A stretch of DNA of 64,000 bases from assembly GCA_030647555.1 (NCBI GenBank), contig JAUSJG010000024.1:3878-67877 (forward strand), read 5' to 3'. Positions within the stretch are counted from its first letter, which is position 1; every line of letters begins with the position of its first letter. Below are positions 30,546 to 60,514 of this stretch, piece by piece. The stretch is from a bacterium (lineage in GTDB: Bacteria; Patescibacteriota; Andersenbacteria; UBA10190; CAIZMI01). The translations under genes were made by a program, and so were the position numbers. Under the pieces are notes generated by a model. The model did no database searches, was not told the DNA's origin, and worked only from the letters and a program-made list of their open reading frames with translations.

Positions 30546-30557
30546 AATTATTATTGA

Positions 30558-31514: not shown

Positions 31515-31516
31515 GG

Positions 31517-32011
31517 TTAGCGCGCTACGAATGCGGTCAAAGAAAATGATAACTGCGAATTATTCGTATCATTTGTACTCACTAATACGCGGCGCGAAAT
31601 TGCCCCCACACCGTTTGGTCCGTGAAACGCGGGGTCAAAAACCACTTTCAGCTCCGCTTTTTTCCCCACCGGAACAACCATCACGTACGGCGATTTCGTG
31701 TTCATTCCAAACAACGGCGATGATTCCCCGTCAAGCAACAACTGAGCGGTTGTACAGTGACATGAGGTGTTTGCGTTATATAATTTCAAATCGGACGTCC
31801 CCGTGTTTTCGATATTAAATTTCGCCTCTACCTTGCCATTTTGCATACTGATATTGCCCCAGTCGTAAACAGACTTATCGACACGCAATTTTGCATCATT
31901 GTTGAATGACACATTCTGCGGCGTGGAAACTTTTGCGTTGATAAACAGTCCACCCACCATTATCGCCACACTAACTGCGATCACTCCAATTATTAATTTT
32001 TTGTCACTCAT
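31517..32011 (-). CDS. DUF1573-domain protein, membrane anchored
   Basis: SCHCTTAQ motif characteristic of DUF1573. Confidence 0.65.
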   Translation of the reverse strand: MSDKKLIIGVIAVSVAIMVGGLFINAKVSTPQNVSFNNDAKLRVDKSVYDWGNISMQNGKVEAKFNIENTGTSDLKLYNANTSCHCTTAQLLLDGESSPLFGMNTKSPYVMVVPVGKKAELKVVFDPAFHGPNGVGAISRRVLVSTNDTNNSQLSFSLTAFVAR

Positions 32012-32046
32012 ATTTTTTTGTTAGAAACAATAACGTTGAAGTTTCT

Positions 32047-34989: not shown

Positions 34990-34993
34990 ATGA

Positions 34994-35194
34994 TTAAGAA
35001 ACCTTATAGCTCAAGGTTGCGAGCGCCGTCTGCAACTCATCTTTTGAAACTTCGCGATTCGCGGTAACGGCGCCGTTACCAGCCAAATCGACAGTAATTC
35101 CTTGTATTCCGTTTACTTTTTCCAAGGACTTTTCAATCAGCTTTACGCACGATTGGCAGGTCATTCCTGAAACTTTGAAATTTGTTGTATACAT
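34994..35194 (-). CDS. copZ: copper chaperone CopZ (HMA domain)
   Basis: GMTCQSC motif; 66 aa. Confidence 0.85.
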
Positions 35195-35271
35195 TGATTT
35201 GGTGAAGGTTATTGAATTATTATACCTATACCTAGGGTACAGGTACCCTATAAATATGTCAACCCCCCCCC
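35195..35271 (-). promoter_or_regulatory. copZ-copA promoter region: TTGACA and TATAAT-like hexamers flanking a perfect inverted repeat TAGGGTAC-ag-GTACCCTA (candidate CsoR operator), abutted by a C9/G9 homopolymer
   Basis: Minus-strand reading: ggggggggg TTGACA tatttaTAGGGTACctGTACCCTAggtataggTATAAT ...24 nt... ATG. The GC-rich pseudo-palindrome plus G-tract resembles described CsoR operators. Confidence 0.5.
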
Positions 35272-36990
35272 TTAGATGACCACGATAACTCCTCGCGGGA
35301 CGCCCATGGCACAGGTAATCTGATACGACCCTTTTTCGGGCGTAAAATTAAACCTGACCGTCTTCCCCTTCTCAAGAAACGTCGGACTATCAACCAAGCC
35401 TGGAATCATAATCGTACTCATACAACCCTGCCCATCCGCCTTTACATCAACATCAAATTGCACCGGCTTTCCGGCCGTAACTGTAAATTGGTTAGGATAA
35501 ATGTCTTCCTGTGGCGAAAGAAATGTGGTTTTGATTAACTGGACACCGGGAATAGAAGCACTATTTTGAGCCTCAATTGTCGGTACTGGAGAAACAACAG
35601 GCTGTTTTGTCACGGCACTTGTTTTTTGTCCCCCAACTGCACTTTCAACGACATTGAATTTGCCAGTAAACATCCCCATAGAGCACGTAAACTTTATTTC
35701 TCCAACCTCTTTCGGTGTAAACTCAATCGTGTTTGCTCCCGGTTGAAGCTGTTTTCGGATACCCAATTTGGGAATCATAAAACTTGCGGCGCAAGTGTTG
35801 ACATTTTCCGAATTAATGACCAAGCGCACCGGTACGCCTTTTTTGATCGTGAACGAGTTGGGTGAATACCCTAATGCTCCCTGCTTCATTTGCAGAACCT
35901 GAAAGCCGTTTTCCGTGGTCGCAACGTCACCATTTGCTGTTGTCCCACTGCCACTGAACTTCCAGAAACTCGGCCAACCGGTTAAATTGTAGCCGTTCGC
36001 AATATTCAAAAAAGCTAACCCGACAACAACCACACCGGCAAATTTGAAAAACTTTTTAGCAAAAGACCCCTTAATTAGCGAAGTAAAACCACCCACACCA
36101 AGTAGTCCTGGAGCCGTTCCCAACGCAAAGGTACCCATAATCATCGCCCCCGAAGTAAAACTTCCCGTACTCATTGCAAATAGTTGCATCGCTTGCGTGA
36201 AACCACAAGGCAAGAAAAATGTCAGCGCGCCGATCAACGCGGAATTACCATGACTATATTCTTTCTCATGCCGACCACGCAGTCCCAATAACTTAGCAAT
36301 TCCGGACGGTAAAGTCAGTCCGGTAGCGGAAAGCCGTGGAAAAATTTCCGTGAGTTGTGCCCCCAAAACAAACATTACAACCCCCACAACAATCATCATA
36401 ATTCCCAAAGACGGTCCGGAAAATTGAAAAGCCTTACCCAAAATACCAATCACACCACCCAATAACGTATAAGAAATAATTCGACCCAGATTGAAAAAGA
36501 AGTGCGGTCGAAATTTTTGCATTGGTGTTGCTTCCGGGTGCTTCTCGGCATGACGTGCAGAAACACCCAAAACCAGACCACCAACCAGAGCCATACATGT
36601 TGATACCCCAGCCGTTAAACCAACCATTAGAACAACTAAAAGACTAGAAGGGTTACTGCCGGAGCCAACATTCAAATTTAGCAGTCCCGCCCACTTTGCC
36701 AGAAAAAACAATACACCTGTCAGAACAACCGCATCCAATAACTCACGATAATCTTTAGGATTACTACTAAGCCAATTTTTTGCATCATCTTTTCCAACCG
36801 CGTACCCGGCATCACTAACGGCCCGTCGCACTTTTTCCATGTCTAACAACTCACTGGAGTGAATAGTTGCTTCCTTGCTACGAACACTAACCTCTACCTG
36901 GTTAACCCCGGGAACAGTTCGCAAATTATCCCCAACTAAAATTTCACACGAACGACAATGCATTCCCTTAATCGGAACAATGGTTTTCAT
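35272..36990 (-). CDS. HMA-domain / multi-pass permease (TauE/DsbD-like) / tandem cupredoxin-like domain fusion protein
   Basis: N-terminal GMHCRSC; ~8 TM helices; C-terminal FTCSMGMFTGKFNVVE and ITCAMGVPRGVIVVI cupredoxin-like motifs. Confidence 0.65.
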   Translation of the reverse strand: MKTIVPIKGMHCRSCEILVGDNLRTVPGVNQVEVSVRSKEATIHSSELLDMEKVRRAVSDAGYAVGKDDAKNWLSSNPKDYRELLDAVVLTGVLFFLAKWAGLLNLNVGSGSNPSSLLVVLMVGLTAGVSTCMALVGGLVLGVSARHAEKHPEATPMQKFRPHFFFNLGRIISYTLLGGVIGILGKAFQFSGPSLGIMMIVVGVVMFVLGAQLTEIFPRLSATGLTLPSGIAKLLGLRGRHEKEYSHGNSALIGALTFFLPCGFTQAMQLFAMSTGSFTSGAMIMGTFALGTAPGLLGVGGFTSLIKGSFAKKFFKFAGVVVVGLAFLNIANGYNLTGWPSFWKFSGSGTTANGDVATTENGFQVLQMKQGALGYSPNSFTIKKGVPVRLVINSENVNTCAASFMIPKLGIRKQLQPGANTIEFTPKEVGEIKFTCSMGMFTGKFNVVESAVGGQKTSAVTKQPVVSPVPTIEAQNSASIPGVQLIKTTFLSPQEDIYPNQFTVTAGKPVQFDVDVKADGQGCMSTIMIPGLVDSPTFLEKGKTVRFNFTPEKGSYQITCAMGVPRGVIVVI

Positions 36991-46478: not shown

Positions 46479-46913
46479 ATGACAGCTGAATTTGATATAA
46501 TCACTATATTATTTATAAACAACACTCTCATGGGCTTCGTAACCAACATCGAAAAAGAGACTTTGGAAAACGAGAATTTCCGTAAAGTTTTATTTACCGC
46601 AAAACACAGCCAATTGGTCGTGATGCATCTGCAACCAGGCGAAGAAATCGGCGAAGAAACGCACACCCTCGACCAATTTATTCGCGTCGAAATGGGAAAT
46701 GGTAAAACAATTATGGACGGCACAGAAACCAATATTATGGATGGTAGCGCATTTGTGATTCCGGCCGGCACAAAACACAACGTAATCAATACATCGCAAA
46801 CCGAACCGATGAAAGTTTACACAATTTATTCCCCACCGGAACACCGCGACGGCACAATTCATAAAACAAAAGCGGACGCAGTGGCCGACGAAGGCGACCA
46901 CTATAACGGGTAA
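46479..46913 (+). CDS. cupin-domain protein (likely start at internal MGFVTN)
   Basis: Cupin_2-like HxH...E...H pattern (EETHTLDQF...GTKHNVIN). Confidence 0.55.
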   Translation: MTAEFDIITILFINNTLMGFVTNIEKETLENENFRKVLFTAKHSQLVVMHLQPGEEIGEETHTLDQFIRVEMGNGKTIMDGTETNIMDGSAFVIPAGTKHNVINTSQTEPMKVYTIYSPPEHRDGTIHKTKADAVADEGDHYNG

Positions 46914-47083
46914 GTTTTAGAAAAGAAAAAATTAATTTAAACAATCAACAGCCCAACCACTCCCGCCAACAAAACATAAATCACGCAATACGGAAATACA
47001 ATTTTTATTACTTGATGCTCTCTGTTTTTCAAACGCCCTGTTGGGCGGGCTATGGGGGATTGTTTTCTTTTACGAAAGAAAAC

Positions 47084-47112
47084 AAAAAAAGAGTACGAAC
47101 GAATTCGTACTC
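47084..47112 (-). terminator. rho-independent terminator of the nadE-containing operon (gagtacgaa-cgaa-ttcgtactc + T7 on minus strand), followed by a GTTTTCTTT...AAAGAAAAC hairpin
   Basis: 9-bp perfect stem with the T-tract on the minus strand, immediately 3' of the nadE stop. Confidence 0.65.
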
Positions 47113-47139
47113 CTGCCAAAGAACAACCTTGGTTCACTC

Positions 47140-49266
47140 TTACGGCACGCGATCGCAGTCCGCTTGCCACTCGTCGTCACAACCCTCCGTCGGCCACACA
47201 AAGTCCCCACCAAGCGGTGATAGCGACAAGAGGCCCAACTTCACACTGTCCGGCACGCAGTTGCGTTTATACTGACCGTCAAAAAACCGCCGCCAGAAAA
47301 CCTTTTGCCACTTCACAATCTCCGGCAACGAAAAACTTGGTTCTCCCTCCGAGAAAACTTCCCAAACGGCGCGATTGATCCAGCTGGGACGCCGTCCAAA
47401 GCGTAACCCCCAAAACAAAAAGAATTCGCGCAAGATTTCCGGACCGATAATCTCATCCGTAATCTGAACTCGCTTACCGCCCACTAAGCGCGTCAACTCC
47501 GGTGATGGCGCCAATCCGGCCACTGCTCGAAATGCATCCCGCACGAGCGGTTGACCCACAAACACATGATCCGCCATCCAAAGCAGAACATGTTTTTCCA
47601 AACTCTTGGGCATCGAAGCATTCGGATTGAAATGACTGGCCCCGTCACCATGCATCGTAAACCACCCCACGGCGGCTTCCGTCATCGTGCCGGTACCGAT
47701 AAACATGCCAATCTCGCGTGCCCCGATGGTCAAAGCTAAAACCGTTCTCAACCAGGCCTGCGCGTTTTCAAATGCCAAATCCTCTTTCAAACCATCGTGG
47801 CCGGAGAGAAGAAGAAGCATTTCTGCCAGACCCAACACTTGTTCTGGTCTATCCGAAAGAGGTACATCCAAACTGGAACCATTCTTGGCAATCGGAATTT
47901 CGCGGAAATCAAATCCAAACGCCTCGCCGATTGTTCGCGCCAGATCGCGCGTTTCATCGGTTGTTCCAAACCCCGGAATCGACAAACAAACAACATCGTC
48001 ATGATCGTAATGGAGTAGATCCGCCGCGTGCGCGATCACTCCGGCAACATTTACCGAATCGCGCCCGCCGGAAAGATTGAACAACAACTTCACTTTGCGT
48101 TGTTGCTTCTCCTGCATGTAGCGCCAACGACAAGCTAGCGCGTGCGTTTGAATCCGGTGCACCGTTTCGCAGGCATAAGTAAGTTCCGCCGGATCCTCCG
48201 GCACGAAAGGTGTACGAGAAATCTTTCGCTTTAGAACATACTGGGGAGAGTGTTCGCCCCGATTCGCAAAAGTAACACCAGGACAAGATACTGGCGATTG
48301 ATCCAACCACCCAAACTCTTGCACTCGGAAATCAACAGCCCCGGGGCGCAACATGTTTTCAATCCATGCCTTGTTATCACTAAACGTGTGTTGCTCCAAA
48401 CGATCTTGCACGCAAGAACCAAGATCGACATCGTGCGTAAGATGAGACGACTCGAAACCGAAACGTTGCTCCCCTTGCGCAATAATGTTGCCCCGTTCCG
48501 CCACAAGAATCTGGTTGTCCCAAGCAAGTCCCCGATTTCCTTCTCCGGGACCAGCGGAAACATACAAATAGACATTGTTGTTTTTTCCGGAAGCGACTTT
48601 GACCAAGTCCTGCCGAAACAAATCTTTACCAATTGTAATGTTACTGGCCGAGAGATTCATCTCCACCATCGCTCCCCAGAGGGCGGCAAAGGCGGAAGGA
48701 CTGATGGGTACCCACATGTCCTCGCACAGTTCGTGATGCAAAATGAAGTCTTCGCAAAACTTGTGCTTGAGCAAAATGTCCCAACCACAGGGAATTACCG
48801 TTCCCAACAACCGCATCTGCCGTAAGGTTGACCGATAGCCGGGAATAAAAAACTTGTGCTCCAAGAACTCGCGATAGTTTGGCAAGAAACTTTTGATGTG
48901 CCCCGACAAGGGGCGCCCGCCGTAAAACGAAATTGCGCAGTTATACAAATCCGTACCTTGCACGATTGGCGCGCCAACTGTGATGAGCATCGGAAAATTG
49001 CGTGTCTTTTCGGCCAATTCGGCCAATGTTTCCAGTGTCGCCTCTTGCAACGTTTCGCTCTGAAACATTTTGTCACAGCTGTAGCCGGTAATGGAAAGCT
49101 CCTGAAAACCGGCAAATTGCGAACCTTCCTGCTTCATCTGTTGTAAAACCTGCATGTGTTCATCGAGATTCTTACGCGGTGCACCAATGTGCGTCCGTGT
49201 TACACCCAACGAGACACGTGCAAAACGATGATGACGCAAATCGTACCAGTCGTAATTGTTCTTCAT
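47140..49266 (-). CDS. nadE: glutamine-dependent NAD+ synthetase (N-terminal CN-hydrolase/nitrilase domain + NAD synthase PP-loop domain)
   Basis: FARVSLGVT...IGAP..N...ELSITGYS nitrilase-like N-terminus. NLSGGRDS PP-loop. 708 aa, like long-form NadE. Confidence 0.85.
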   Translation of the reverse strand: MKNNYDWYDLRHHRFARVSLGVTRTHIGAPRKNLDEHMQVLQQMKQEGSQFAGFQELSITGYSCDKMFQSETLQEATLETLAELAEKTRNFPMLITVGAPIVQGTDLYNCAISFYGGRPLSGHIKSFLPNYREFLEHKFFIPGYRSTLRQMRLLGTVIPCGWDILLKHKFCEDFILHHELCEDMWVPISPSAFAALWGAMVEMNLSASNITIGKDLFRQDLVKVASGKNNNVYLYVSAGPGEGNRGLAWDNQILVAERGNIIAQGEQRFGFESSHLTHDVDLGSCVQDRLEQHTFSDNKAWIENMLRPGAVDFRVQEFGWLDQSPVSCPGVTFANRGEHSPQYVLKRKISRTPFVPEDPAELTYACETVHRIQTHALACRWRYMQEKQQRKVKLLFNLSGGRDSVNVAGVIAHAADLLHYDHDDVVCLSIPGFGTTDETRDLARTIGEAFGFDFREIPIAKNGSSLDVPLSDRPEQVLGLAEMLLLLSGHDGLKEDLAFENAQAWLRTVLALTIGAREIGMFIGTGTMTEAAVGWFTMHGDGASHFNPNASMPKSLEKHVLLWMADHVFVGQPLVRDAFRAVAGLAPSPELTRLVGGKRVQITDEIIGPEILREFFLFWGLRFGRRPSWINRAVWEVFSEGEPSFSLPEIVKWQKVFWRRFFDGQYKRNCVPDSVKLGLLSLSPLGGDFVWPTEGCDDEWQADCDRVP

Positions 49267-49297
49267 TTTGGTTTCCTCTATGCTTTGGTTTCAGAAA

Positions 49298-50272
49298 CTA
49301 GTTTTCGAAATAACTCCGCACCGCCAAGATCTGCTTGGAGATATCGCAGTCAAGTGGCAAAACTTCAAACGGATGACAATCATCTGCCTCCCTTAGGGCG
49401 TTAATCGTCCATGGACAGGAATTCGTCGTCCAGAAATGTTCAATCGGAAAATCCGCGTTGCAGATTTTGGTCCAAGACTGATTTGGTGCAACAAGGTGGG
49501 TCGCGTACATACTGATTTTTTTGGCACCACCCCTAATAAGCACCTCACCACATTTCAGTTGTGTACCAAAGGTTTGAGCAAGATCATCAACGACCACGCA
49601 GTGACGACCACGCGGTTCACCTTCTTTAATCGTCACGATCCTCCGATTACCTTCCCTGTGTTTATCGCAAATAATCAGAGGCCACTCGCTAAACATTTCC
49701 CCGAAGCGTTTTTTTGCGCCCTCGTCGGGAAATACGACAGATACGTTGTTACGATCAGGCAATCCACGCAAATGTTTCTGAAGCATCGGAATCGCGCTTG
49801 TCAAAATAGGCAACATATTTGTTCCTTCGAAAATAAACCATTCCGACAAGGCATGCATATCCCAAATCACCACACGATTCTTCAAGGAAACACAAGATGG
49901 AATACTCGACAAATCACGCGCCATTGATTTGGCCGTGACAATCCGACCTTGCCGATCCATTCGCTCCATTGTCCCGGTTGGGAAAAAGGGAAGAATAATC
50001 GTGAGCGAACGCGCTTGGTAATACGCGAAAGCACTCATTACCCAGCGTTGCGTGACACTGTCCTGTGGATTTTCAAAGGCCGCCAAAAACGCCACGTCGC
50101 GCCCCCTCAAGGAGTTTTCATCTTTCATCACAATGTGAAAGTCCGGCCAACTGTCGGCAAAACGGCCCCATTGAATGTTTCCTCGCACCATCCCGGAACC
50201 GACGCCGGTAATCGACCGCGCCATCTGTTCCATTGCCTCACAATAATAGACAATAATCGGTTTCATCATCAA
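49298..50272 (-). CDS. ribose-phosphate pyrophosphokinase (Prs)-family protein, divergent
   Basis: Collinear with Prs: DMHALSEWF (DLHA.QIQGFF), VVFPDEGAKKR (VVSPDAGG.KRA), GRHCVVVDDLAQTFGT (GRDCVLVDDMIDTGGT), YATHLV. The substrate-loop residues are altered (FFPTGTMER, QTFGT). Confidence 0.7.
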   Translation of the reverse strand: MMMKPIIVYYCEAMEQMARSITGVGSGMVRGNIQWGRFADSWPDFHIVMKDENSLRGRDVAFLAAFENPQDSVTQRWVMSAFAYYQARSLTIILPFFPTGTMERMDRQGRIVTAKSMARDLSSIPSCVSLKNRVVIWDMHALSEWFIFEGTNMLPILTSAIPMLQKHLRGLPDRNNVSVVFPDEGAKKRFGEMFSEWPLIICDKHREGNRRIVTIKEGEPRGRHCVVVDDLAQTFGTQLKCGEVLIRGGAKKISMYATHLVAPNQSWTKICNADFPIEHFWTTNSCPWTINALREADDCHPFEVLPLDCDISKQILAVRSYFEN

Positions 50273-50438
50273 TCTCCTTCTCTACTTATGTAGTTGTGAA
50301 AAAACCATCCGACACAAACTGTAAACTTCCGTTGCAATGGCCGAACAATTTTGTTGTTCAGCTGCTGCAAAAAAGGGCCGCGTAAAATTGCACTTGGTGC
50401 AATTACGCGGCTGGATTTTGGTTACTTTCAAAAGGGAG

Positions 50439-51683
50439 CTAAACCCGGCAAACTTCCGTGTCGTTATGCGTGTGTCCGTAGATACGCTTAGCACGCGCGA
50501 TGTCTTCCAACCTTCCAACAGCCTTCGCAAGATTATCGGAAAGTTTTACCGGCCAGCGACCGTTGGCACGGATAATTTTGGCAACGAGCGAGATCGGATC
50601 GATCCCCAAATCATTCCCTAAATCCGTCCCCCACCCGTAGCAGGTACCGAGCCGGTTCTCAAAATGAAGATAGAGTTCAATGATTCTCTCCGCCCACAGA
50701 CCGTCCGAAAACACACCAAGCTTGGTAAGTGGATTAACACCGAACCCCTTGTAAAACTGAATCGCCCGCTCACCCCACTTGAAGGGGTCACCCGAATCCT
50801 GACGCAACCCTTTCCAGAGCATCGCTTGTTCTCGCGTCATATCCCGGAAGAAAAAATCACTGCCGAAAGTATCGGTTAAAGCGATTGAGAGCGACTCGCC
50901 GTACAAATCCCACCAATCTTTCAGCATTTGCTGATGCGATTGCCGGATCGAATCGTCATCATCTCCAAATAGGCAAGCATAGACCATGTCAAGCTCGTGC
51001 GCTTGCGTCCCTTGGACTTTCAAACCTTGTTCCATCGCAATCCACACGTTGGAGGTACCGGTCAGCTGCTCAGGTTTCAATTCATTCATAAGTCGACAAA
51101 TTACTTTTTCTTGCCAATCAAGACAACAACGCCGGCGTGTACTAAACTCCATGATCCGAATTCCGGGATACTGCGAAATCATCTCCAATTTTCTTCCCAA
51201 CCGGAGATGTCCTTCCTTGTACAAATCCTGCAACGTCATATCCTGCGCTCGCAACACAAATTGGTTGCGAAGTTGGTTGACAATGGTAATACCAATCGTT
51301 TCCCAAGGACTCGCTTCTTCCCATGCGCCTGGAAACCGCAAATCGTACTGCCCGTCCAATCCAACCTCTAACTCATAGGGGGGCAACTGAAATTCGCGCA
51401 GATAATCCACAAACTCTGGCGCATACTGCGGCCGTCCATCAGAAAGACGAAAGCTTCGCAGATAGTCCAATTCGCGATCGGTAAACCGCAATGTTCGACA
51501 ATGGTCAAGCTGGGCCTGCAGTTCGCTAATGGGGATAATATCCGCCAACCGCACGCTCTTTGTGCGGTTGTTCATCGCAAGAACCACCGGCACACCCCGC
51601 CGTTTACTCCAAATCAATTGTTGCATGTTGAGTTTATAGACGTCCAAATCGGTCAAGTGATTGATAATCGGTTTTTCTTTCAC
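50439..51683 (-). CDS. pncB: nicotinate phosphoribosyltransferase (type II PRTase, PncB-like)
   Basis: N-terminal LTDLDVYKLNMQQLIW matches the PncB LLDTDAYKLHMQQAV signature. ~400-aa length. Confidence 0.75.
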   Translation of the reverse strand: MKEKPIINHLTDLDVYKLNMQQLIWSKRRGVPVVLAMNNRTKSVRLADIIPISELQAQLDHCRTLRFTDRELDYLRSFRLSDGRPQYAPEFVDYLREFQLPPYELEVGLDGQYDLRFPGAWEEASPWETIGITIVNQLRNQFVLRAQDMTLQDLYKEGHLRLGRKLEMISQYPGIRIMEFSTRRRCCLDWQEKVICRLMNELKPEQLTGTSNVWIAMEQGLKVQGTQAHELDMVYACLFGDDDDSIRQSHQQMLKDWWDLYGESLSIALTDTFGSDFFFRDMTREQAMLWKGLRQDSGDPFKWGERAIQFYKGFGVNPLTKLGVFSDGLWAERIIELYLHFENRLGTCYGWGTDLGNDLGIDPISLVAKIIRANGRWPVKLSDNLAKAVGRLEDIARAKRIYGHTHNDTEVCRV

Positions 51684-51721
51684 TGCTCATTCCTTTTCTA
51701 AAATGGGTTTTAGAGAAACAA

Positions 51722-52339
51722 CTAGCTCACACGGTACAACCCGCGTGACAGAATGTAATCGGCCGATTGAGGATTAACATGTTCTATCAAAGCTGCACGA
51801 TCACCACTGGCAGCTGCCTCGCGCGCCGCGGTAGAACTTTCGTCTTTTCCGTCTACTCCTAATACTTGTGATTCAGGCGGATAATCTTCTTCGTCTATTT
51901 CATATCCGACCCGCAGGATAACGTAAAATGGAAACGTCACCCACAACAAAGGACCCTGAATCCAATCTAAACAGATTTTCGATCCCGAAAAACCGCCTCG
52001 CACCAGATCCGCTCCGACAGCCAGCCAGAGCTCAACAGCGCCTACGGTTGTATCTTGCAAAAATTGCATTTGTTGAAAGGTGGCCTTTCGCTTGACTTGG
52101 TTCATTCGCGTTAAATCGGATAGATCCAAAACAACATTGTTCGGTAAGTTTGGAAAAGCCAACACCGCCAATGCCGCGCGTTCGCTGGGATACAAAGTTC
52201 TTGAAGAAGACTTATCATCCCGCGGACCGCACACGGCAACAATCAACTGGTCGCACAAGGTGGCCAACCGCCGAACAATGCGCTCGTGCGCCAAAGTTCC
52301 CGGATTACAGCTCAAACCGTAACGAATTATTTTCGTCAT
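51722..52339 (-). CDS. nicotinate/nicotinamide mononucleotide adenylyltransferase (NadD/NMNAT-like nucleotidyltransferase)
   Basis: YGLSCNPGTLAHERIV corresponds to the GxFxPxH/TxxH motif. ~205-aa size. Confidence 0.55.
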   Translation of the reverse strand: MTKIIRYGLSCNPGTLAHERIVRRLATLCDQLIVAVCGPRDDKSSSRTLYPSERAALAVLAFPNLPNNVVLDLSDLTRMNQVKRKATFQQMQFLQDTTVGAVELWLAVGADLVRGGFSGSKICLDWIQGPLLWVTFPFYVILRVGYEIDEEDYPPESQVLGVDGKDESSTAAREAAASGDRAALIEHVNPQSADYILSRGLYRVS

Positions 52340-52497
52340 TAACTTGTTCCTTTAAGTAACCAAAATTGTCATAGAACATGATTTCAAAACGCTTTTGAAA
52401 CCAGAGAAATATTGTCGAAAATTCAACAACAGTTCTCTAAAAAATTCGGCGCGGGAAGCAGGTTTCTTCCCGCGCCAACGAACTTACTTCCTAATAT

Positions 52498-53268
52498 CTA
52501 TTGACCTAGTACAAGGTTCCCGACGATGTTCTTAACAATCGTGCACGCACTGTCATTTTGCAGTAAAAACATCATCAACGCGGCGAAAGCTTTTCCGTCC
52601 GTAATTGCACCGAGTTGCAGATGCGCAAGAAATTGCTCGACAGTGAGAAACTCTACCGCGATTTCTTCGTTCTCTTCATCAACGCCACGCAGATATTTCG
52701 CGATTGTTCCCATCTTTCGCCTGGAAACACGGATCGTCACCGAGAAGCAAGTGATCTGCTCATCGCAACCGCCCGCGGACGGCGTAAATTTGCCCAGTTT
52801 CCGGAGTTTTTCTTTCTTGCGCCGATTGATGTGTAAACCGGTTTCTTCGTCAAGTTCAGCAAGCGCGCGGGAGTTGACTTCATCATCATCCAACATTCCC
52901 GCCGGAATCTCGATGAATCCTGCACTACCGAGGGGAACTCGAGCCTGTTTCGTTGTGACAACGAAAATCTCACCTGTTTCCTTACAAACAACGAAGACTA
53001 ACATCGTTACCGAATCCCCGCGCAGAAAGACAATGCCCGGCACTGGTTTCTTGCTCCGACGTTTCACGACATCAGTTTTCATTTTCACAAATGCGACCCG
53101 CGCGCCAAAAATGTCGGAGGACTGAATCTCAATACCACGCAGTTGAAGATTTTCATGATCAAACTTGCGATTTAGCCAGTCATTAAAAACAGGGCTTTCA
53201 ACAACTTCGACTGCGCCCCTACCGCAAACTCTGACAACGTCGCCCTTTCTTGTCGTCACTTTAATCAC
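52498..53268 (-). CDS. ADP-ribose pyrophosphatase-like Nudix hydrolase (NudF-like, with N-terminal domain)
   Basis: AGMLDDDEVNSRALAELDEETGL aligns to NudF AGMIEEGESVEDVARREAIEEAG. Preceding RGDSVTMLVF resembles NudF RGHAAVLLPF. Confidence 0.6.
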   Translation of the reverse strand: MIKVTTRKGDVVRVCGRGAVEVVESPVFNDWLNRKFDHENLQLRGIEIQSSDIFGARVAFVKMKTDVVKRRSKKPVPGIVFLRGDSVTMLVFVVCKETGEIFVVTTKQARVPLGSAGFIEIPAGMLDDDEVNSRALAELDEETGLHINRRKKEKLRKLGKFTPSAGGCDEQITCFSVTIRVSRRKMGTIAKYLRGVDEENEEIAVEFLTVEQFLAHLQLGAITDGKAFAALMMFLLQNDSACTIVKNIVGNLVLGQ

Positions 53269-53451
53269 TGCAAATCCCCCAAAATTTGAGAAAGTTTTTG
53301 TAAAACAACACTACTCGGTTTCCCCGAGAGAGCTTGCGCCAAAATTATATTATAATTTTAGTCCAAATTCTCTTGAGAAAAAATTTGGAGAGGAACGCAG
53401 TAAATACTGCGTTCCTCTCCTCGCTATTGCGATTCTAGATCACACCAGTTG

Positions 53452-53718
53452 TCATCTTCGACGACCGGTGTTTTGTTCTTGAACGATCGCTTCCTTCACG
53501 ATTGCCCGATACTTTCCTTTCCACGACGCGTTCACCTGCGGCCAAAACTTTTCCAGATTTACCGCCGCAACGTCTGACCGCGTAGCCAAACGGTGCGCCA
53601 AATAAACCTGTTCTGCCGCTTCTCCGACAAACGCATCATCGAGATTTCTTCCGCCAGCATTCGCCAACCGAACAAGTTCACATGCTTTCGGAAGCAAAGT
53701 CGTGTCCCGAATTTTCAT
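53452..53718 (-). CDS. small hypothetical protein within the operon
   Basis: 88-aa ORF sitting 16 bp after the vWA gene. No motif recognised. Confidence 0.3.
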   Translation of the reverse strand: MKIRDTTLLPKACELVRLANAGGRNLDDAFVGEAAEQVYLAHRLATRSDVAAVNLEKFWPQVNASWKGKYRAIVKEAIVQEQNTGRRR

Positions 53719-53734
53719 CGTTTCACCTTACTCC

Positions 53735-54724
53735 TTAAGCAAACGAGTCATCATCGCCCGCGCCACTTCCCGCCCCGGCCGGAACGGCATTCTGCGTCGC
53801 CAGCGGTACCGTCGCCTTGATCTTGCCGGCCGAAGCCCGCAAGACCGATGACGACATCCGGAAACCGAGAACACTCATCAATGTATCCGGGTCACTTGGG
53901 AATGCTTGCACCACGGTCTTGAGAAAGCCCATGCCACCAACGACCGTTTGAGGATCAAGACGCTTCATCGCTTGCTCCACTTCAGGATCGTTCTCGCAAG
54001 CCACACATTGGAAAATCCGCAAATCCAAAGCTTCGCGCTCCGCATCGTTATGCAAAACGAGACCCATATTCGAGGCCATCATGTCACGAAGATTTTCGTC
54101 CATGAAACCGTAGAATTGGAAGCTCCATTTCTCGGATAACGCTTTAGTGGCGACGTAAGTTTTCAACTGCTCCCGGTGACCGGGGGCACTTTCGTTGTCG
54201 AAGCCGTCGGAGACGACTACGACCACGCGTCGCACATCGTTGCCGTCCTTTTCCAGCGCCGCGGCCAGCAATTCGCATGCCGCCGTGCCCTGCCGAACCG
54301 GTTCGTAAATCATCGTCGTACCGGAAGGATAATAGACCTGTTCGGTAATTTCCGGCAGACAGTGGGGATCGCCTTTGAGTGCCGTCATAAACGGCACGTC
54401 CGGCCCGTGTGGCTCCCAGGCTTTCCACTTGCTATTGAAGAAAATCACGCGAATGTGCATCTTCCGCCGCTCGTGCGACTTCATCAGCACTTCGCGAAAC
54501 GAATTCAGACCTTTTCGCACAGCTTGTGCTTTTCCAGAAAGAGAACCGGACATGTCCACCACCACCACCAACGCTGTCGCCTCGCCTTCCTGCGTTTCCG
54601 CTTGTTGGGCATAGGAAACAATCGCTTGTGGCAAATGTGCCCCGGCGATCGTACCGAGCACCATCTGTTGATCGTCGACTGTATCGGCGTCATAGAAGGG
54701 AGCCACCACTTGAGAATTACTCAT
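53735..54724 (-). CDS. von Willebrand factor A (vWA) domain protein, TerY-like (start set at MSNSQ)
   Basis: VVVVDMSGSLSG (DxSxS MIDAS) and VVVVSDGFDN motifs. Confidence 0.7.
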   Translation of the reverse strand: MSNSQVVAPFYDADTVDDQQMVLGTIAGAHLPQAIVSYAQQAETQEGEATALVVVVDMSGSLSGKAQAVRKGLNSFREVLMKSHERRKMHIRVIFFNSKWKAWEPHGPDVPFMTALKGDPHCLPEITEQVYYPSGTTMIYEPVRQGTAACELLAAALEKDGNDVRRVVVVVSDGFDNESAPGHREQLKTYVATKALSEKWSFQFYGFMDENLRDMMASNMGLVLHNDAEREALDLRIFQCVACENDPEVEQAMKRLDPQTVVGGMGFLKTVVQAFPSDPDTLMSVLGFRMSSSVLRASAGKIKATVPLATQNAVPAGAGSGAGDDDSFA

Positions 54725-54834
54725 CTTTCTATACCTTTCTAATGGAGTCCAGAAAAACAGAAACAAGAGAAAAAGAAGTGATGCCACGACACACTGTCGC
54801 GACACCACTAACAAACCAACCAGAAACTCGATAC

Positions 54835-56817
54835 CTATCCGCAGAGCGAGAACGACTCGGTCGTCTCGAACCGCACACCCAACTTGCGCATTTCGGCTTC
54901 TGCTGTTCGCGCATTCTTTTCGAAACCGGGGATGTCACAGCTGGTATCCCAAAGATACACCATCCGCTCTAACAAATCTTTCCGCCCGGAAGCAATACAC
55001 TTTTCCATGGCTTGCTGCATACTGCGCAAAACACAGTGCGTACGCGCCTGGCCGGACACTACCACCAGATCGAACGGCGGAATGCCCAATTCGGGAAATC
55101 CCTCGAACAACTGGAGAATGGAAAAAGTAGCTTGAGCGTTGGGATCGGTCGTAATTTCATACTCCGGTCCGAACACACCATAGAACTCCGTGCGCCACGA
55201 CATCCCCTTCGGGAAAAACATGGGCTCGGTTTCGATTGTCCCCCGCAAAAAGTTGCGGTGGTACATCGCCGCCATCACCAGCGGATCCAGCGTGGAACCG
55301 TAGGTAAACCGGTGGCAATGCTTGGTCCACAAAACCACAAACCCCAACTTGTTCACGTAATCCCAGGTCTCGTCGAGAAACTCTTGGGATCGCGTAATCG
55401 GTTGGTACCAACCATCCGGATTGTGCTGGGGATGCCAGCACGAACTGGGCAAAACAACCGGAAACGGCTTGTCCGCTCCATCAATAAACAGGTGCGGATG
55501 CGCACCGGCCGGCAACCCGAACGGGTTATTCGCCCGCAGTTGCCAGTAGTGCATATCAAACCGTGCCGTCAATGGATGGAAATCAATCGTATATCCGTCG
55601 CCGGTAATCGCCGCCGCGTTTCGCAGATCCCATTCGACTGAACGAATGGTTCCACTCCACGCGTTGGGCACACTCAAATGCCCACCCATCACCGACAAAC
55701 TTTGGAAACAACTCCCCGCTTCGGGATCATCCGTCCAGACAACCCGATTGCGCGGATTTTTTCCACCCTCTTTCCACCAATCCGGCACATCCAAAGTATC
55801 CCGGAAAACGTGAGGTAACACGCGAGTGACACACCCGGTCTTCACATCCACCGTCGTAAACGGCGACAAGAAGTCCGTCTGTTCATCCACATGCAATCGG
55901 AAAACCCGCGGAGAGTCTTTGCCCGTCTTTCTGACACCGTACTTACCGGCCATCCGGTATGCCTCCGCCTGGATCACATCCGCGTTGGGTTGGAACCAGG
56001 GGTTGACGCACAACGACCGATCGTACCAACCCGGCAACGGCAATTGCGGAACACTCGTCAACGGCGACTTTTTCGTAAAGATCGGCGCCGCATCCGCAAC
56101 CGCTTGCTTGGTCGGCGGAATTTCTGCTTCGAACGGAAACAACTCGTGTTCACCCACTTTCGAAATCGGCAAGTTGGCGATGGCATATTCCTTCACGCCA
56201 CGCTGTCCCTGATCGTCGTAGGTGTAGCCGTCACCTTTGTACGTCTCACGCAGGTGTACCGAGAAGTACAAGAACTGCCGAAACGCCACCAGGTCACGAC
56301 CACTCATCAAATAACGCTCGTAGGTCATAAACCTTGGATCGTCTTGGCTCTTGTTCGTGACCTTCACCTCGACGTCCAACCACTTGTAGCCCGAACGCGT
56401 CTGCAGCGTTGCGAACTCCGTGGACTTCAACTGTTGGCGATGCCGTTTTACATCAACGGCCAGATCCGGATAAGCATCGACAACAACATCGAGCATCCCG
56501 TCCCATGTCGCCAATCGGGCTTTCGTCCCCGTTTCCGGGAAAACGATCGTCTGGACTTTGTAACCGGCCAGCAGTTTTTCCCTGGCGTAATCCTCGTTCC
56601 AACCGATCGCCATCAACACCTCCCAGCCGGACAAGCCAATCAAACCCGCCAGACCGTTACTGTCCACCAGCATCACGATCTTGCGGTTGACGTCGTCCGC
56701 CATGGTTTCGAAATCTTTCGGCGACTTGCCTCGCAGCACGCGACCGCAAAGGCCAGTCACGGAATCACGCTTGCCGCTCAAAAAAGCTTTTCTGTACTCG
56801 CTAATCGTTCGAATCAT
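54835..56817 (-). CDS. fusion protein: ~300-aa N-terminal domain of unknown function + C-terminal isochorismatase/nicotinamidase (PncA)-like cysteine hydrolase domain
   Basis: RLHVDEQTDF resembles the isochorismatase N-motif (VIDMQNDF). LVVVSGQARTHCVLRS resembles the catalytic-Cys motif (V.G...CV..T). Confidence 0.5.
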   Translation of the reverse strand: MIRTISEYRKAFLSGKRDSVTGLCGRVLRGKSPKDFETMADDVNRKIVMLVDSNGLAGLIGLSGWEVLMAIGWNEDYAREKLLAGYKVQTIVFPETGTKARLATWDGMLDVVVDAYPDLAVDVKRHRQQLKSTEFATLQTRSGYKWLDVEVKVTNKSQDDPRFMTYERYLMSGRDLVAFRQFLYFSVHLRETYKGDGYTYDDQGQRGVKEYAIANLPISKVGEHELFPFEAEIPPTKQAVADAAPIFTKKSPLTSVPQLPLPGWYDRSLCVNPWFQPNADVIQAEAYRMAGKYGVRKTGKDSPRVFRLHVDEQTDFLSPFTTVDVKTGCVTRVLPHVFRDTLDVPDWWKEGGKNPRNRVVWTDDPEAGSCFQSLSVMGGHLSVPNAWSGTIRSVEWDLRNAAAITGDGYTIDFHPLTARFDMHYWQLRANNPFGLPAGAHPHLFIDGADKPFPVVLPSSCWHPQHNPDGWYQPITRSQEFLDETWDYVNKLGFVVLWTKHCHRFTYGSTLDPLVMAAMYHRNFLRGTIETEPMFFPKGMSWRTEFYGVFGPEYEITTDPNAQATFSILQLFEGFPELGIPPFDLVVVSGQARTHCVLRSMQQAMEKCIASGRKDLLERMVYLWDTSCDIPGFEKNARTAEAEMRKLGVRFETTESFSLCG

Positions 56818-56868
56818 TTCAGATCCTCTCTCTTACTAAGGGTTCACAAGAAACACGAAACACAAACT

Positions 56869-58752
56869 TCACTTCTTCTTTGTCGTGAGCAAACCCAACG
56901 TGTTGCCTTTCACGACAACAATCGTCGAGCCGTCAATCAGCTGAATTGCGTCACCTTCGGAAACGGCGTCGACCGTTCCTTCTCGAACTACCGGATCTCC
57001 TCCTTTCTTCCAAATCATCAACCCGTCATCCGCCGAGAACAAGATTGTTCCCTTTAGATATGCGGCCTGATTGATTACCCCGGAAAACTGCGCGGATTGC
57101 ACAACATCGGTTAAGACCTCAAATCGATCAACCAATGTTACTTGCTTGCCACGTGTGTTTTCCAGTACCCGAAACACCACTAATTCACTTTTGTCGAAAG
57201 CGGCAACGTGCTGGCGTTGTTGAAAATACCCGCGCGGAATGCCTTGGACGGCAATCTTTTTTCGCGCGAAACCCTGCAACACCGACCATTCATAGACGCC
57301 GCTCGCGTAGGCCATAATCACCAGACCAGCCAGACATTCTCCCAACCAAGTGGCACCAATCGGCATTCCTTGCACAACTGGTTTATATACCCAGTTGCCA
57401 ACGATGGATTGCCAACGCATCACCTGCGCACCGACGCAACGATGGAAGAATTCACCGACACCAAACGACGGTTTTCCCAGAAAATTGTTCGTCGTCGTCG
57501 TTTCAATTTTTTCTCCAGAATGATTGAAAATTTGGACGCTTTCAGAATCCGCCACCACCACCAGTTCTTTTCCGATAGCAACGGAATAATCCGCACCACT
57601 TTGAATTTCGAACTGAAGGAAGTTTTCTTTTTCGACTTTTCCGCTTTCACTCAACACACTCAATCTGAAACGCTTTCCTTCACGCACTACCATGAGAACT
57701 TGTCTTGCGACAATCGCAGTAGCGACGATCGGATAACGCGTCTTGAAGATGTCGGGAGTATATTGCACTGCAAACACTCCTACCGGTTGAGGCATAAACA
57801 CCTGTTTTTGACAAAACGGACACTTGGCACGCGCGAACTCGTTGTGGCAATGGGGGCACTCTTGGAACTTGAGCTCAAACATCCAGTCGGGCAGAGATTT
57901 CTCCGCTCTTTTCATCTGGACTAACTCTTGCTCCAAGAGTTGCAACGCTTCATCCGGCAGAATTTCAATCGGCAAGGCGTTGCCGATCGTTTCCGCCTTC
58001 GGATGAAAGCGGGACAATCCCGCCAGAACCCGTTCGGGAATATCCATCCCCGTCGTGGCTTTCTTAAACCATTGACCGGCCGCCCGAAATGGGTGACCAC
58101 CGCGCGTTATCCCCGTGATATAGTGGATACGTAATGACCACTCGTCATCTTCCGGCAGAAATGGCACCAACCCAGCAGCCAAATCACGGTTGTAAAGCCG
58201 TGGCGCGCCGTAGGCAAAATGAATCTCCCTGCCATTGAAACCGGGAACTTGGTAAGAATCGGCGTCACAGCCCAAGACCTTCCCAAACTGTGAAAAGTGA
58301 AACATGGCATTGCCGGGATTGAAATCGCAAATAACCAATCCGGCCACGTGAATCAGGTTTTTCAGGGCGTTCAATCCCTTAAGAACTTTCAGCGCGCGAC
58401 TTGGCGTGATCAATTGCCTCGCCCAAAATTGCGGCGAGTAAAGTTCGGCTAACGCCCCATACCCTTTTGGCATCAGTTCCATGATGAAACCTTGAAAGAC
58501 ATCTTGCCTATCGGTAATCACTTTTTCCGGTGGCAAAATTTCCTTAGGCAAATTCATGGTGACCATCCGCGGAATCTTCTGCGCCCTTACCTCCCGCATC
58601 GTTTCTTTATCCGGATCACCATCGTAAACGAAAATCTTCGCCGCTTTCGGTTTTCCTTGAACATCACAGCGATAGACACTCGCCATCGCCCCCTGTCCGA
58701 GCATTTCTTTCAGCTGAACAGGTTTTCCGTCAACGTAAACGATATCGCTCAT
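56869..58752 (-). CDS. eukaryotic-like Ser/Thr protein kinase domain + CxxC...CxxC zinc ribbon + C-terminal beta-rich domain
   Basis: LGQGAMASVY (Gly loop), AAKIF (VAIK-like), VICDFNPGN (catalytic loop), GCDADS (DFG-like), CPHCHNEFARAKCPFC. Confidence 0.65.
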   Translation of the reverse strand: MSDIVYVDGKPVQLKEMLGQGAMASVYRCDVQGKPKAAKIFVYDGDPDKETMREVRAQKIPRMVTMNLPKEILPPEKVITDRQDVFQGFIMELMPKGYGALAELYSPQFWARQLITPSRALKVLKGLNALKNLIHVAGLVICDFNPGNAMFHFSQFGKVLGCDADSYQVPGFNGREIHFAYGAPRLYNRDLAAGLVPFLPEDDEWSLRIHYITGITRGGHPFRAAGQWFKKATTGMDIPERVLAGLSRFHPKAETIGNALPIEILPDEALQLLEQELVQMKRAEKSLPDWMFELKFQECPHCHNEFARAKCPFCQKQVFMPQPVGVFAVQYTPDIFKTRYPIVATAIVARQVLMVVREGKRFRLSVLSESGKVEKENFLQFEIQSGADYSVAIGKELVVVADSESVQIFNHSGEKIETTTTNNFLGKPSFGVGEFFHRCVGAQVMRWQSIVGNWVYKPVVQGMPIGATWLGECLAGLVIMAYASGVYEWSVLQGFARKKIAVQGIPRGYFQQRQHVAAFDKSELVVFRVLENTRGKQVTLVDRFEVLTDVVQSAQFSGVINQAAYLKGTILFSADDGLMIWKKGGDPVVREGTVDAVSEGDAIQLIDGSTIVVVKGNTLGLLTTKKK

Positions 58753-59651
58753 TAAGTCACCTCTCTTTCAATAAAAACACCGCTGATATCATCATCAAAA
58801 ATCACCGATCCGTCCGGCATCGTATTTTTTTTCACCAACAGACGCGCCAAATCGTCCACCTCTTCGGGATGATAAACGTTCCACGCATCATCACTCGACA
58901 AGATAGTTAGATCCTCGTCCTCTCGTCGGTTGTTGAGATCCAACAGCCAAGTTTCAAACTTGCGCCACTTCCAACGCCCAAACGGATTAGCCGGCGCATG
59001 ATGCCAAGGCCAACCATCGGTCGTAACTCCCAACTTTTGAAAATTCGGTGGCACACGAATTACTTTGGAATGTAGATCGGCTGGATCGCCAGGGTATTCC
59101 TGACCCTTGATCGCCAACATGTAACCCAAATAGGGCGGCATGTCATTGTAGTCAAAGATGCTTAATTTCCCGTCCAAGGAAACTTTTGCATCACCACGAA
59201 CCAAAACCAATCCTCCTTCATCTTCATGCACACAAACCCCCAGAACGGTTGCTTGATACATTTCTGCAATCGCGGCATAAACCAAGTAGTTATCCGACTC
59301 CATCAGATCAACTGCACGGTCGTAAACCGTAAGTTCCGACAGAAATTGTGCTCCACCCGGATAAGCGGCAATGGCATTCATCAGATATCGCTGTAACAAC
59401 CGGTCGTAGGCGCCGGGAAAAATATCCCAGGACACACCCAGTTTGACCAGTTGCCACATCGCCTGCGTGGCGGCATGACACAGCTGCGCCGCACCGGCCT
59501 CACTTTTACTGCTTGCAGAACAACCATCGGCAACAGAGGCGACGATCATTTTGTCGCGCCGAAAGGAAAAAACCATATCCTGGCAGTTCTTTCGGCGATT
59601 GTAATGCGTCGGACCAGGTTTTGCCGCCGAACCACACCATACTCTTCCCAT
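58752..59651 (-). CDS. PP2C-family Ser/Thr phosphatase
   Basis: NCQDMVFSF...IVASVADGCSAS resembles the PP2C N-motif (NQD...AVADGMGG). TAATG stop/start overlap with the kinase gene. Confidence 0.7.
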   Translation of the reverse strand: MGRVWCGSAAKPGPTHYNRRKNCQDMVFSFRRDKMIVASVADGCSASSKSEAGAAQLCHAATQAMWQLVKLGVSWDIFPGAYDRLLQRYLMNAIAAYPGGAQFLSELTVYDRAVDLMESDNYLVYAAIAEMYQATVLGVCVHEDEGGLVLVRGDAKVSLDGKLSIFDYNDMPPYLGYMLAIKGQEYPGDPADLHSKVIRVPPNFQKLGVTTDGWPWHHAPANPFGRWKWRKFETWLLDLNNRREDEDLTILSSDDAWNVYHPEEVDDLARLLVKKNTMPDGSVIFDDDISGVFIEREVT

Positions 59652-59835
59652 TTTGTCACTCCTTGTACTTATTATCTAGAATCGCAAGTTGTCAAAACAA
59701 CCAACCAAACCGCACCCTTTTGACCCTACGAGGATCATCCGGAGCAAGGGGTAAAGGTATATCACATCTATAATTCTTGTCAAGCAAAAAATCGGCTTGT
59801 TTTGACACATCAAAACGGCCATACTGACCGCTAAT

Positions 59836-60381
59836 ATGAATAATATTATTGATGCTCAAAATGGCGACGAGACGGCATTTGCTGAATTGGTTAAACAAAA
59901 CTTGCCACTAATTTACCGCTACATATTTCGATTAACGGGAAACGTGGCCACGGCCGAGGATTTAACCCAAGAAACATTCGTGCGCGTTTGGAAAAACTTG
60001 TCGCGTTTTGACACCAAAAAACCTTTTCGCCCGTGGCTTTACCGCATTGCGCGCAACTGCGCTTTCGATTTCTTGCGCAAGAAAAATACCGTGCCGTTTT
60101 CTTATTTGTCGGAGCAGGAGCAACTAAAATTGGGAACCCTGCCGGACAATAGTACTTCTCCGGCCGATGCACGCGATAGCACTTCGCAAATCGTTTTGTT
60201 GACAACAGATACAACCTACGAAAAGACGACAACCGCCACACAAGGTGATTTTCAAACAAGTGCCTCGGTAGTAATAAACGGCAAATCCAATCCGGATGGT
60301 TCAGTCACCGCCACATCCGTCCAAACCGCGCCGGCAAATTTAGGACAAGGTCAAAATCAAGGTCGACTAATAAGTCAGTAA
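59836..60381 (+). CDS. ECF sigma-70 region-2-only protein (no region 4) with Thr/Ser/Gln-rich C-terminal tail
   Basis: DLTQETFVRVWKNLSRFD...FRPWLYRIARNCAFDFLRKK is clear sigma region 2. No HTH/region 4 follows in any frame. Confidence 0.5.
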   Translation: MNNIIDAQNGDETAFAELVKQNLPLIYRYIFRLTGNVATAEDLTQETFVRVWKNLSRFDTKKPFRPWLYRIARNCAFDFLRKKNTVPFSYLSEQEQLKLGTLPDNSTSPADARDSTSQIVLLTTDTTYEKTTTATQGDFQTSASVVINGKSNPDGSVTATSVQTAPANLGQGQNQGRLISQ

Positions 60382-60397
60382 ATATCTAAACAGAAAA

Positions 60398-60419
60398 AGT
60401 GTCAACTACTGTTGACACT
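60398..60419. terminator. perfect 9-bp hairpin AGTGTCAAC-tact-GTTGACACT flanked by A5 (5') and TTTAAAAAAA (3'); possible bidirectional terminator
   Basis: Seen directly. The T-run is stronger on the minus strand. Confidence 0.45.
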
Positions 60420-60514
60420 TTAAAAAAATACCCCTAAAATACGAACACATCCCCCTGGGATCGTCCCCGAGTGATGTGTTCGTTTCTCTCGAGAACTTCA
60501 GAAGGGAGTCTCTC

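Follow-up and report, generated by a model that had tools for sequence, protein, structure and literature searches.

A nicotinamidase-type fusion protein encoded within a TerY-P-like kinase, phosphatase and vWA module beside NAD-salvage genes of an Andersenbacteria genome

Introduction

Bacterial salvage of nicotinamide adenine dinucleotide (NAD) is known to be controlled mainly at the level of transcription, through NadR, NiaR and NrtR. Here we analyze a locus in which NAD-salvage genes lie next to the components of a candidate protein-level switch. The gene at its center encodes a 660-residue fusion of an uncharacterized N-terminal domain and a nicotinamidase-type C-terminal domain, and is found in a 64,000-nucleotide stretch of DNA, hereafter the window, from a bacterium of the Andersenbacteria (Patescibacteriota; assembly GCA_030647555.1, contig JAUSJG010000024.1, positions 3,878 to 67,877). 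Coordinates are those of the window, and the features of the module and of the NAD-salvage genes all lie on the minus strand.

The closest described systems are of four kinds, of which the NrtR-type NAD-salvage regulons (Nudix-related transcriptional regulators) are compared with the related loci below. The first comprises the nicotinamidases PncA and Pnc1 (2wt9, 2h0r/3v8e, 3pl1), with which the C-terminal domain shares the predicted fold, the Asp-Lys-Cys triad, the Asp-His-His site, and a place upstream of nicotinate phosphoribosyltransferase (NAPRT). It differs from them in its size of ~400 residues with two insertions, in its WTKHC motif, in scoring below the Pfam threshold, in being fused to a 232-residue N-domain, and in being encoded within a kinase/phosphatase/vWA operon.

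The second is the TerY-P triad, which, in the summary of Anantharaman et al. 2012 and Gao et al. 2020 given in PMC11090510, is made up of a TerY-like protein of the von Willebrand factor A (vWA) type, a PP2C phosphatase, and a Ser/Thr kinase with a C-terminal zinc ribbon. Such TerY-P-like triads have been proposed to act as metal-sensing, phosphorylation-dependent switches (PMC11090510). All three domain types occur in a single operon of the window, including the kinase zinc ribbon and an intact metal ion-dependent adhesion site (MIDAS). The composition nevertheless departs from that of a three-gene triad: the nicotinamidase gene stands between the kinase and vWA genes as a conserved fourth member, the kinase has an extra C-terminal domain of ~300 residues, and the module is tied to NAD salvage rather than to tellurite, restriction or DNA-processing genes. 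A PADLOC scan gave no TerY-P match for any module protein at E<=0.1.

The third kind comprises the phage NAD+ reconstitution pathways Adps/Namat, Nampt/Nmnat and PnuC/NadR (NARP1, NARP2, NARP3; bioRxiv 10.1101/2024.02.11.579819; PMC13464706), which are likewise clusters of genes that rebuild NAD+ from breakdown products. Instead of any of these gene pairs, the window carries NAPRT, NadE, Prs and an NMNAT-like gene, that is, a deamidated Preiss-Handler set, and the module occurs mostly in cellular genomes and with an attached signaling triad. Full-text literature searches, with most subscription journals outside their coverage, returned no paper linking such a triad to a nicotinamidase or to NAD salvage.

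Results

The fusion gene and its nicotinamidase-type domain

The open reading frame (ORF) of the fusion (54835..56817, stop included) starts with ATG, 7 nt downstream of an AGGA-type ribosome-binding site (RBS), GAGAGGA. It encodes the N-domain (aa 1-232, 56122..56817), a Pro/Ala/Lys-rich linker (aa 233-262, 56032..56121) that is missing or variable in the aligned homologues, and the nicotinamidase-like domain (aa 263-660, 54838..56031). A preliminary description of the locus, made from the sequence alone, had placed a 660-residue gene between the kinase and vWA genes and quoted the motifs RLHVDEQTDF and THCV; gene and motifs are all present, the latter at aa 307-316 and 593-596. A database search returned 44 homologues, with E-values down to 1e-211 across 99% of the length and the two-domain layout in most of them, and the ORF is therefore a genuine gene and not a chance reading frame. 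A mis-assembly artefact was also considered, and was rejected because the N-domain plus nicotinamidase architecture is present in 48 cluster representatives. The fusion had been called unusual: the joining of two domains is real, but it recurs in at least 48 protein clusters. The GC content is 0.548 for the fusion gene and 0.541 for the vWA gene, compared with 0.50 for the kinase and PP2C genes, 0.48-0.51 for the NAD genes, and 0.453 for the window.

An identical protein has been deposited as MDO8512613.1 under the annotation 'hypothetical protein'. When the full 660-residue sequence was scanned against Pfam, NCBIfam, PHROG and PADLOC models and against PDB sequences, no match was obtained. 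Since these single-sequence scans are blank, the C-terminal half can be assigned solely by profile and structure methods, and both give the same answer. Searched against the PDB, a profile built from 38 homologues places solved nicotinamidases at the top, led by the Acinetobacter baumannii enzyme (2wt9, 1.6e-12) and followed by yeast Pnc1 (2h0r, 6.7e-12) and Mycobacterium tuberculosis PncA (1e-8), and its motifs align with the DVQNxF, DxH (DWH), WPxHC, KG and xxCV motifs of these enzymes. The AlphaFold2 (AF2) model of aa 263-660, with a pLDDT score (predicted local distance difference test) of 91.7, has an isochorismatase-like α/β fold. In a Foldseek search of the PDB with this model, the top 19 matches are nicotinamidases (2wt9: E=1.6e-9, TM-score 0.75, target-normalised), and biuret, triuret and carbamoylsarcosine amidases rank below them.

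The putative active site is complete. Eight alignment columns are invariant among the 38 homologues: D311, F316, D412, H414, H500, K537, G538 and C595 (window numbering). By conservation and profile alignment, D311 (55885-55887), K537 (55207-55209) and C595 (55033-55035) form the putative Asp-Lys-Cys catalytic triad of nicotinamidases, while D412 (55582-55584), H414 (55576-55578) and H500 (55318-55320), within the motifs TIDFH and WTKHC, are the putative metal ligands. Within the isochorismatase superfamily, an Asp-His-His metal site is typical of nicotinamidases. Profile and model together thus confirm, as far as prediction can, an isochorismatase fold of the nicotinamidase type for the C-terminal domain. 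The preliminary description had suggested this identity and had named the lack of an isochorismatase fold in a predicted structure as the outcome that would speak against it; the fold was found.

The kinase, phosphatase and vWA genes

The first gene of the operon encodes a PP2C-family phosphatase (58752..59651; PF13672, E=6.7e-11, above the cut-off) with conserved DG motifs, and its stop codon overlaps the start of the kinase gene. The kinase is a Hanks-type Ser/Thr kinase of 627 residues (56869..58752; Pkinase, E=8.7e-5), the profile of which matches StkP and PknA at 1e-8. It carries K39, D143, N148 and D163, with K39, D143 and D163 invariant among homologues, followed by a zinc ribbon of the form CxxC...CPxC with four near-invariant cysteines (C299, C302, C311 and C314). 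The zinc ribbon is followed by a conserved, β-rich C-terminal domain of ~300 residues (aa ~320-627, 56869-57800), which matches nothing in the PDB or Pfam.

The gene that follows the fusion gene encodes the vWA protein (53735..54814; VWA_2, E=2e-4, below the Pfam cut-off). Its MIDAS motif comprises D87-x-S-x-S91, T167 and D203, of which D87, T167 and D203 are present in 24/24 sequences and S91 in 21/24. The ORF as called mechanically begins with a TTG codon and a hydrophobic 30-residue leader. The true start is probably the ATG at 54724, because it is preceded by an AAAGG RBS and yields a 329-residue product, in keeping with the 333-343 residues of homologues. Since the catalytic residues, zinc ribbon, MIDAS and DG motifs have all been kept, the components of the switch look functional, judged from their sequences. 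The gap that separates the fusion stop (54835) from the likely start of the vWA gene contains a hairpin (54777-54809), its stem 15 bp long and its tail rich in T, which could be an internal attenuator or an mRNA-stabilizing element and overlaps a sub-threshold Rfam match to the small RNA BTnc201 (E=0.18).

A conserved four-gene module

Related loci, designated by L numbers, were fetched, and their ORFs were called and labeled by iterated profile searches seeded with the window proteins. Among 21 distinct fusion loci, the PP2C and long kinase genes are present in 21/21 and the vWA gene in 19/21; in the two others, the contig ends inside the fusion gene. The genes follow one of two orders, either PP2C-kinase-fusion-vWA, as in the window, or fusion-vWA-PP2C-kinase, and in loci of the second order the C-terminal domain of the kinase is missing or unrecognizable. 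Within 10 kb of the fusion genes, NAPRT is found in 13 of the 21 loci, an NMNAT-like gene in 12, and NadE in 8. The hosts include many classes of Patescibacteria, uncultured Gammaproteobacteria represented by metagenome-assembled genomes (MAGs), Micavibrio, and Bdellovibrionota.

In three further loci (L003, L038 and L039) the order is PP2C-kinase-nicotinamidase-vWA, with a nicotinamidase of 402-407 residues and the N-domain nowhere in the flanks. L038 and L039 were retrieved from the kinase alone; one of them continues with NAPRT and the other with a phosphoribosyltransferase of the QRPTase_N type. A kinase profile search gave 6 proteins, and one kinase-seeded metagenome scan returned a 2-kb fragment as its sole match. 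The nicotinamidase-like gene is thus the fourth member in all 24 loci, and because L003, L038 and L039 keep it without the N-domain, the constant partner of the triad is the long nicotinamidase and not the N-domain. The preliminary description saw the gene as an unusual insertion into a three-gene triad. The fourth gene is indeed there, but as part of a conserved four-gene module rather than as a one-off.

Precomputed annotations are consistent with these labels: in L002, the order is NrtR-PP2C-kinase-fusion-vWA-NAD kinase-ADP-ribosylglycohydrolase-NAPRT-Prs-NadE. The first gene, upstream of the module, is of the NrtR type (NUDIX + WHD_NrtR), so that this locus resembles NrtR regulons; NrtR acts transcriptionally, whereas the module implies control at the protein level. 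The NMNAT-like gene encodes a protein of 460-482 residues in L002, L013, L014, L021 and L027, and that of L002, which has an NAD-kinase domain (PF01513), may be an NMNAT-NAD kinase fusion. In L014, L020 and L027, the operon also contains a second N-domain paralogue, this one stand-alone, directly after the gene for the vWA protein or the kinase.

Parts of the module also occur unfused on a jumbo-phage contig (IMG/VR IMGVR_UViG_3300033143_006101, 252,876 bp; L004/L034), which carries genes for PP2C, a stand-alone N-domain, NadE, NAPRT, the long kinase, and a 340-residue PncA-like protein. This gene set suggests a possible NAD-rebuilding route of the Preiss-Handler type in phages, which could be distinct from NARP1-3.

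NAD-salvage genes and transcription units of the window

Downstream of the module, the same strand of the window carries a NUDIX hydrolase gene with an unexplained N-terminal extension of ~88 residues (52498..53268), an NMNAT/NadD-like nucleotidyltransferase gene (51722..52339), NAPRT (NAPRTase_N + NAPRTase; 50439..51683), the gene for the phosphoribosyl pyrophosphate (PRPP) synthetase Prs (49298..50272), and that for the glutamine-dependent NAD synthetase NadE (CN_hydrolase + NAD_synthase; 47140..49266). An 88-residue ORF at the end of the module operon (53452..53718) is not conserved in related loci, and its status as a gene is uncertain. Terminator-like hairpins are found at three places on this strand. 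A strong one, with a 15-bp stem and a T-run (53387..53420), closes the four-gene unit; the second (52446-52478) lies 3' of the NUDIX gene, which is thereby flanked on both sides, and the third is at 47089-47114. Judged by these hairpins, the genes seem to fall into three transcription units: [PP2C-kinase-fusion-vWA-88 aa], [NUDIX] and [NMNAT-NAPRT-Prs-NadE]. Since the NUDIX protein has no winged-helix match, it is not a regulator of the NrtR type, and an Rfam E-value scan of 46500-60500 detected no riboswitch. Divergently oriented, 185 bp upstream of the PP2C gene, is a gene for an ECF-like small sigma-70-family factor (59836-60381, plus strand); the intergenic region between the two genes has promoter-like hexamers on either strand.

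The N-terminal domain represents an unannotated family

The preliminary description recognized nothing in the N-terminal half, and our searches bear this out. The AF2 model is very confident (pLDDT 95.7, predicted TM-score 0.89) and displays an α+β fold, with an insert of six helices set between the strands of the N- and C-terminal ends. Foldseek matches to it are at noise level in the PDB (best E=1.1, MbcT, probability 0.04), and the viral structures of BFVD hold no fold match (best E=0.25). The N-domain profile gave nothing except spurious short matches to PDB sequences, no Pfam model matches the domain, and a high-E-value Pfam scan of 31 members turned up no recurring weak family. Assignments based on the R-S-E motif of ART enzymes, PGGxGTxxE of LOG proteins, PD-(D/E)xK or the ligase motif KxDG were tried and rejected for misfits of spacing, register or conservation.

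The N-domain is nonetheless a separate and widely distributed family. An exhaustive profile search yielded 882 clusters at 50% identity, 311 of them at E<=1e-30, and every named member is annotated as a hypothetical protein by its source. Identity to the window protein is 31-49% for the N-domain, compared with ~22-26% for the C-domain outside the window's own clade, so that the N-domain is the better conserved of the two. Across 247 sequences, R26, W105, R180, G195, G197 and E210 are conserved at >=99%, and G72, G30, R45, T199, N215 and D196 at 88-98%. Of 246 members collected, 171 (~70%) are stand-alone proteins of ~220-270 residues and 48 are nicotinamidase fusions; among the remaining 27 are tandem N-domains as well as proteins in which the N-domain is joined to HD, metallophosphoesterase or IMPase-family phosphoesterase domains. 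The N-domain has four unrelated classes of hydrolases as fusion partners and occurs at either terminus. Stand-alone members include proteins from Lokiarchaeota/Promethearchaeota MAGs, and an N-domain-HD fusion is encoded on a giant-virus MAG contig. Near stand-alone genes, we found NUDIX (x2), HAD (x2) and ADP-ribosylglycohydrolase (x1) genes, while the triad is absent there.

The most likely ligand or substrate of the N-domain is a nucleotide or nucleoside derived from NAD. The domain is unlikely to couple the enzyme to the triad, because the module dispenses with it in L003, L038 and L039, and would rather be an accessory. Two roles can be envisaged, to which we give about equal weight, each on its own being possible but on the unlikely side. 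One is that of an enzyme releasing nicotinamide from nicotinamide mononucleotide (NMN), nicotinamide riboside (NR) or NAD, which would make the fusion a bifunctional, two-step catabolic enzyme. A set of conserved polar residues (R26, R45, W105, R180, D196, T199, E210 and N215) and the large stand-alone fraction, common for enzymes, agree with this role, as does an ADP-ribosylglycohydrolase gene nearby in L002 and L006. It also fits the choice of fusion partners, which act just before (HD, metallophosphoesterase, IMPase-type) or just after (nicotinamidase) the release of nicotinamide. However, neither fold nor sequence ties the domain to a known glycosidase or NADase in the PDB, BFVD or Pfam, the surroundings of stand-alone genes hold no consistent NAD signal, and three loci do without the domain altogether. 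The other role is that of an allosteric sensor of an NAD-related metabolite, which would tune whichever hydrolase is attached. The variety of unrelated hydrolase partners, the attachment at either terminus and the tandem duplicates point in this direction, and the Arg-rich invariant positions suggest phosphate binding. On the other hand, most members stand alone without a conserved partner, and Foldseek found no likeness to known sensor folds in the PDB or BFVD.

Other features of the window

The window is cellular and not viral DNA, with genes for PurL, glycerol kinase and heavy-metal P-type ATPases. A blastn search of phage genomes with positions 53000-60000 found nothing. A copper or heavy-metal handling cluster (27319-36990) includes two P-type ATPases of 735 and 980 residues that contain HMA/HMBD domains, as well as a DsbD_2-cupredoxin-HMA protein of 572 residues. 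A 2139-residue protein (11030-17449, minus strand) with a Gly-rich domain, CHB_HEX_C, Fn3_assoc, and an Ig domain like that of phage tail tip protein J is probably a large surface protein.

Discussion

The reading that we favor, and consider probable with appreciable room for doubt, is that the fusion protein provides the PncA step of an operon-linked Preiss-Handler route and that this step is gated by a TerY-P-like phospho-switch. The C-domain would act as a metal-dependent nicotinamidase, turning nicotinamide into nicotinate, which NAPRT would combine with PRPP supplied by Prs to form nicotinate mononucleotide. The NMNAT/NadD-like enzyme would then produce nicotinate adenine dinucleotide, and NadE would produce NAD. 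The NUDIX enzyme may cleave ADP-ribose into AMP and ribose-5-phosphate, the latter being a possible feed for Prs. The PP2C phosphatase, the zinc-ribbon kinase and the MIDAS-containing vWA protein would most likely gate the entry of nicotinamide into NAD salvage post-translationally. A place in the NAD route was among the options named in the preliminary description, and the neighboring NAPRT, NMNAT-like, NadE, Prs and NUDIX genes agree with it.

Several observations weigh against this assignment. The window protein does not match PF00857 even at E<=1, and only 8/44 homologues reach E<=0.01 for this family. The C-domain is about twice as long as canonical PncA (~180-215 aa), owing to large insertions at ~aa 321-375 and 430-450, and WTKHC replaces WPxHC in the window's clade. 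The 38-homologue alignment contains no invariant Ser/Thr in the C-domain, which is thus not an obvious phospho-acceptor. In one homology-labeling run, a small PncA-like paralogue (207-275 aa) was found in L003, L021, L027 and L029, the L003 label not being reproduced in a later run. As for the N-domain, a Pfam census of 69 neighbor proteins of stand-alone genes showed no recurring theme, NAD-related or other, and the N-domain-IMPase fusion is located among housekeeping genes.

A bolder proposal, which we think rather unlikely to hold, is that the four genes constitute the first dedicated protein-level control of NAD salvage in bacteria, common to a jumbo phage and to host-dependent bacteria (the candidate phyla radiation (CPR), Micavibrio, Bdellovibrionota and others), with the N-domain as a new nicotinamide-liberating family that would form a two-step channel into the Preiss-Handler route.

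It is improbable, in our judgment, that the four genes instead form a TerY-P-type conflict system, for anti-phage defense or counter-defense, in which the nicotinamidase-like protein, instead of serving housekeeping salvage, would be directed at NAD-derived signals or pools as an effector or a sensor. TerY-P-like triads have been reported as stand-alone defense systems and as add-ons to restriction systems (PMC11090510), the jumbo-phage contig with its PP2C, kinase, N-domain, PncA-like, NAPRT and NadE genes recalls phage NAD reconstitution, and the fusion and vWA genes are richer in GC (0.54-0.55) than their neighbors (0.48-0.51). Yet depletion of NAD is not an outcome of nicotinamidase action, the genes nearby include neither a nuclease nor a TIR or SIR2-type effector, and the Preiss-Handler synteny is stable across distant phyla with reduced genomes. 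In PADLOC, moreover, the vWA and PP2C proteins match no defense family, and the kinase gives nothing beyond weak matches to PD-T4-6 and mad6.

Equally improbable is that the C-domain is an isochorismatase-fold amidohydrolase for another substrate, such as NMN, NR or another amide: this could be argued from the insertions, the WTKHC motif and the weak Pfam score, and because some related operons also carry a canonical-size PncA-like gene in the one labeling run, but the nicotinamidase-typical metal site is invariant, the top matches by sequence as well as by fold are without exception nicotinamidases, the biuret, triuret and carbamoylsarcosine amidases ranking lower, and NAPRT, next in the pathway, requires nicotinate.

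If the assignment as a switch-gated nicotinamidase is true, a conserved kinase/phosphatase/vWA module connected to the nicotinamidase step would bring a post-translational level to the control of NAD salvage, and it would do so in organisms such as CPR bacteria, predators and episymbionts, for which a reliance on scavenged precursors is assumed. TerY-P-like triads, the targets of which are mostly unknown, would gain a concrete partner enzyme that can be assayed. The N-domain, finally, flags a family of at least 882 clusters that has a confidently predicted fold and no annotation.

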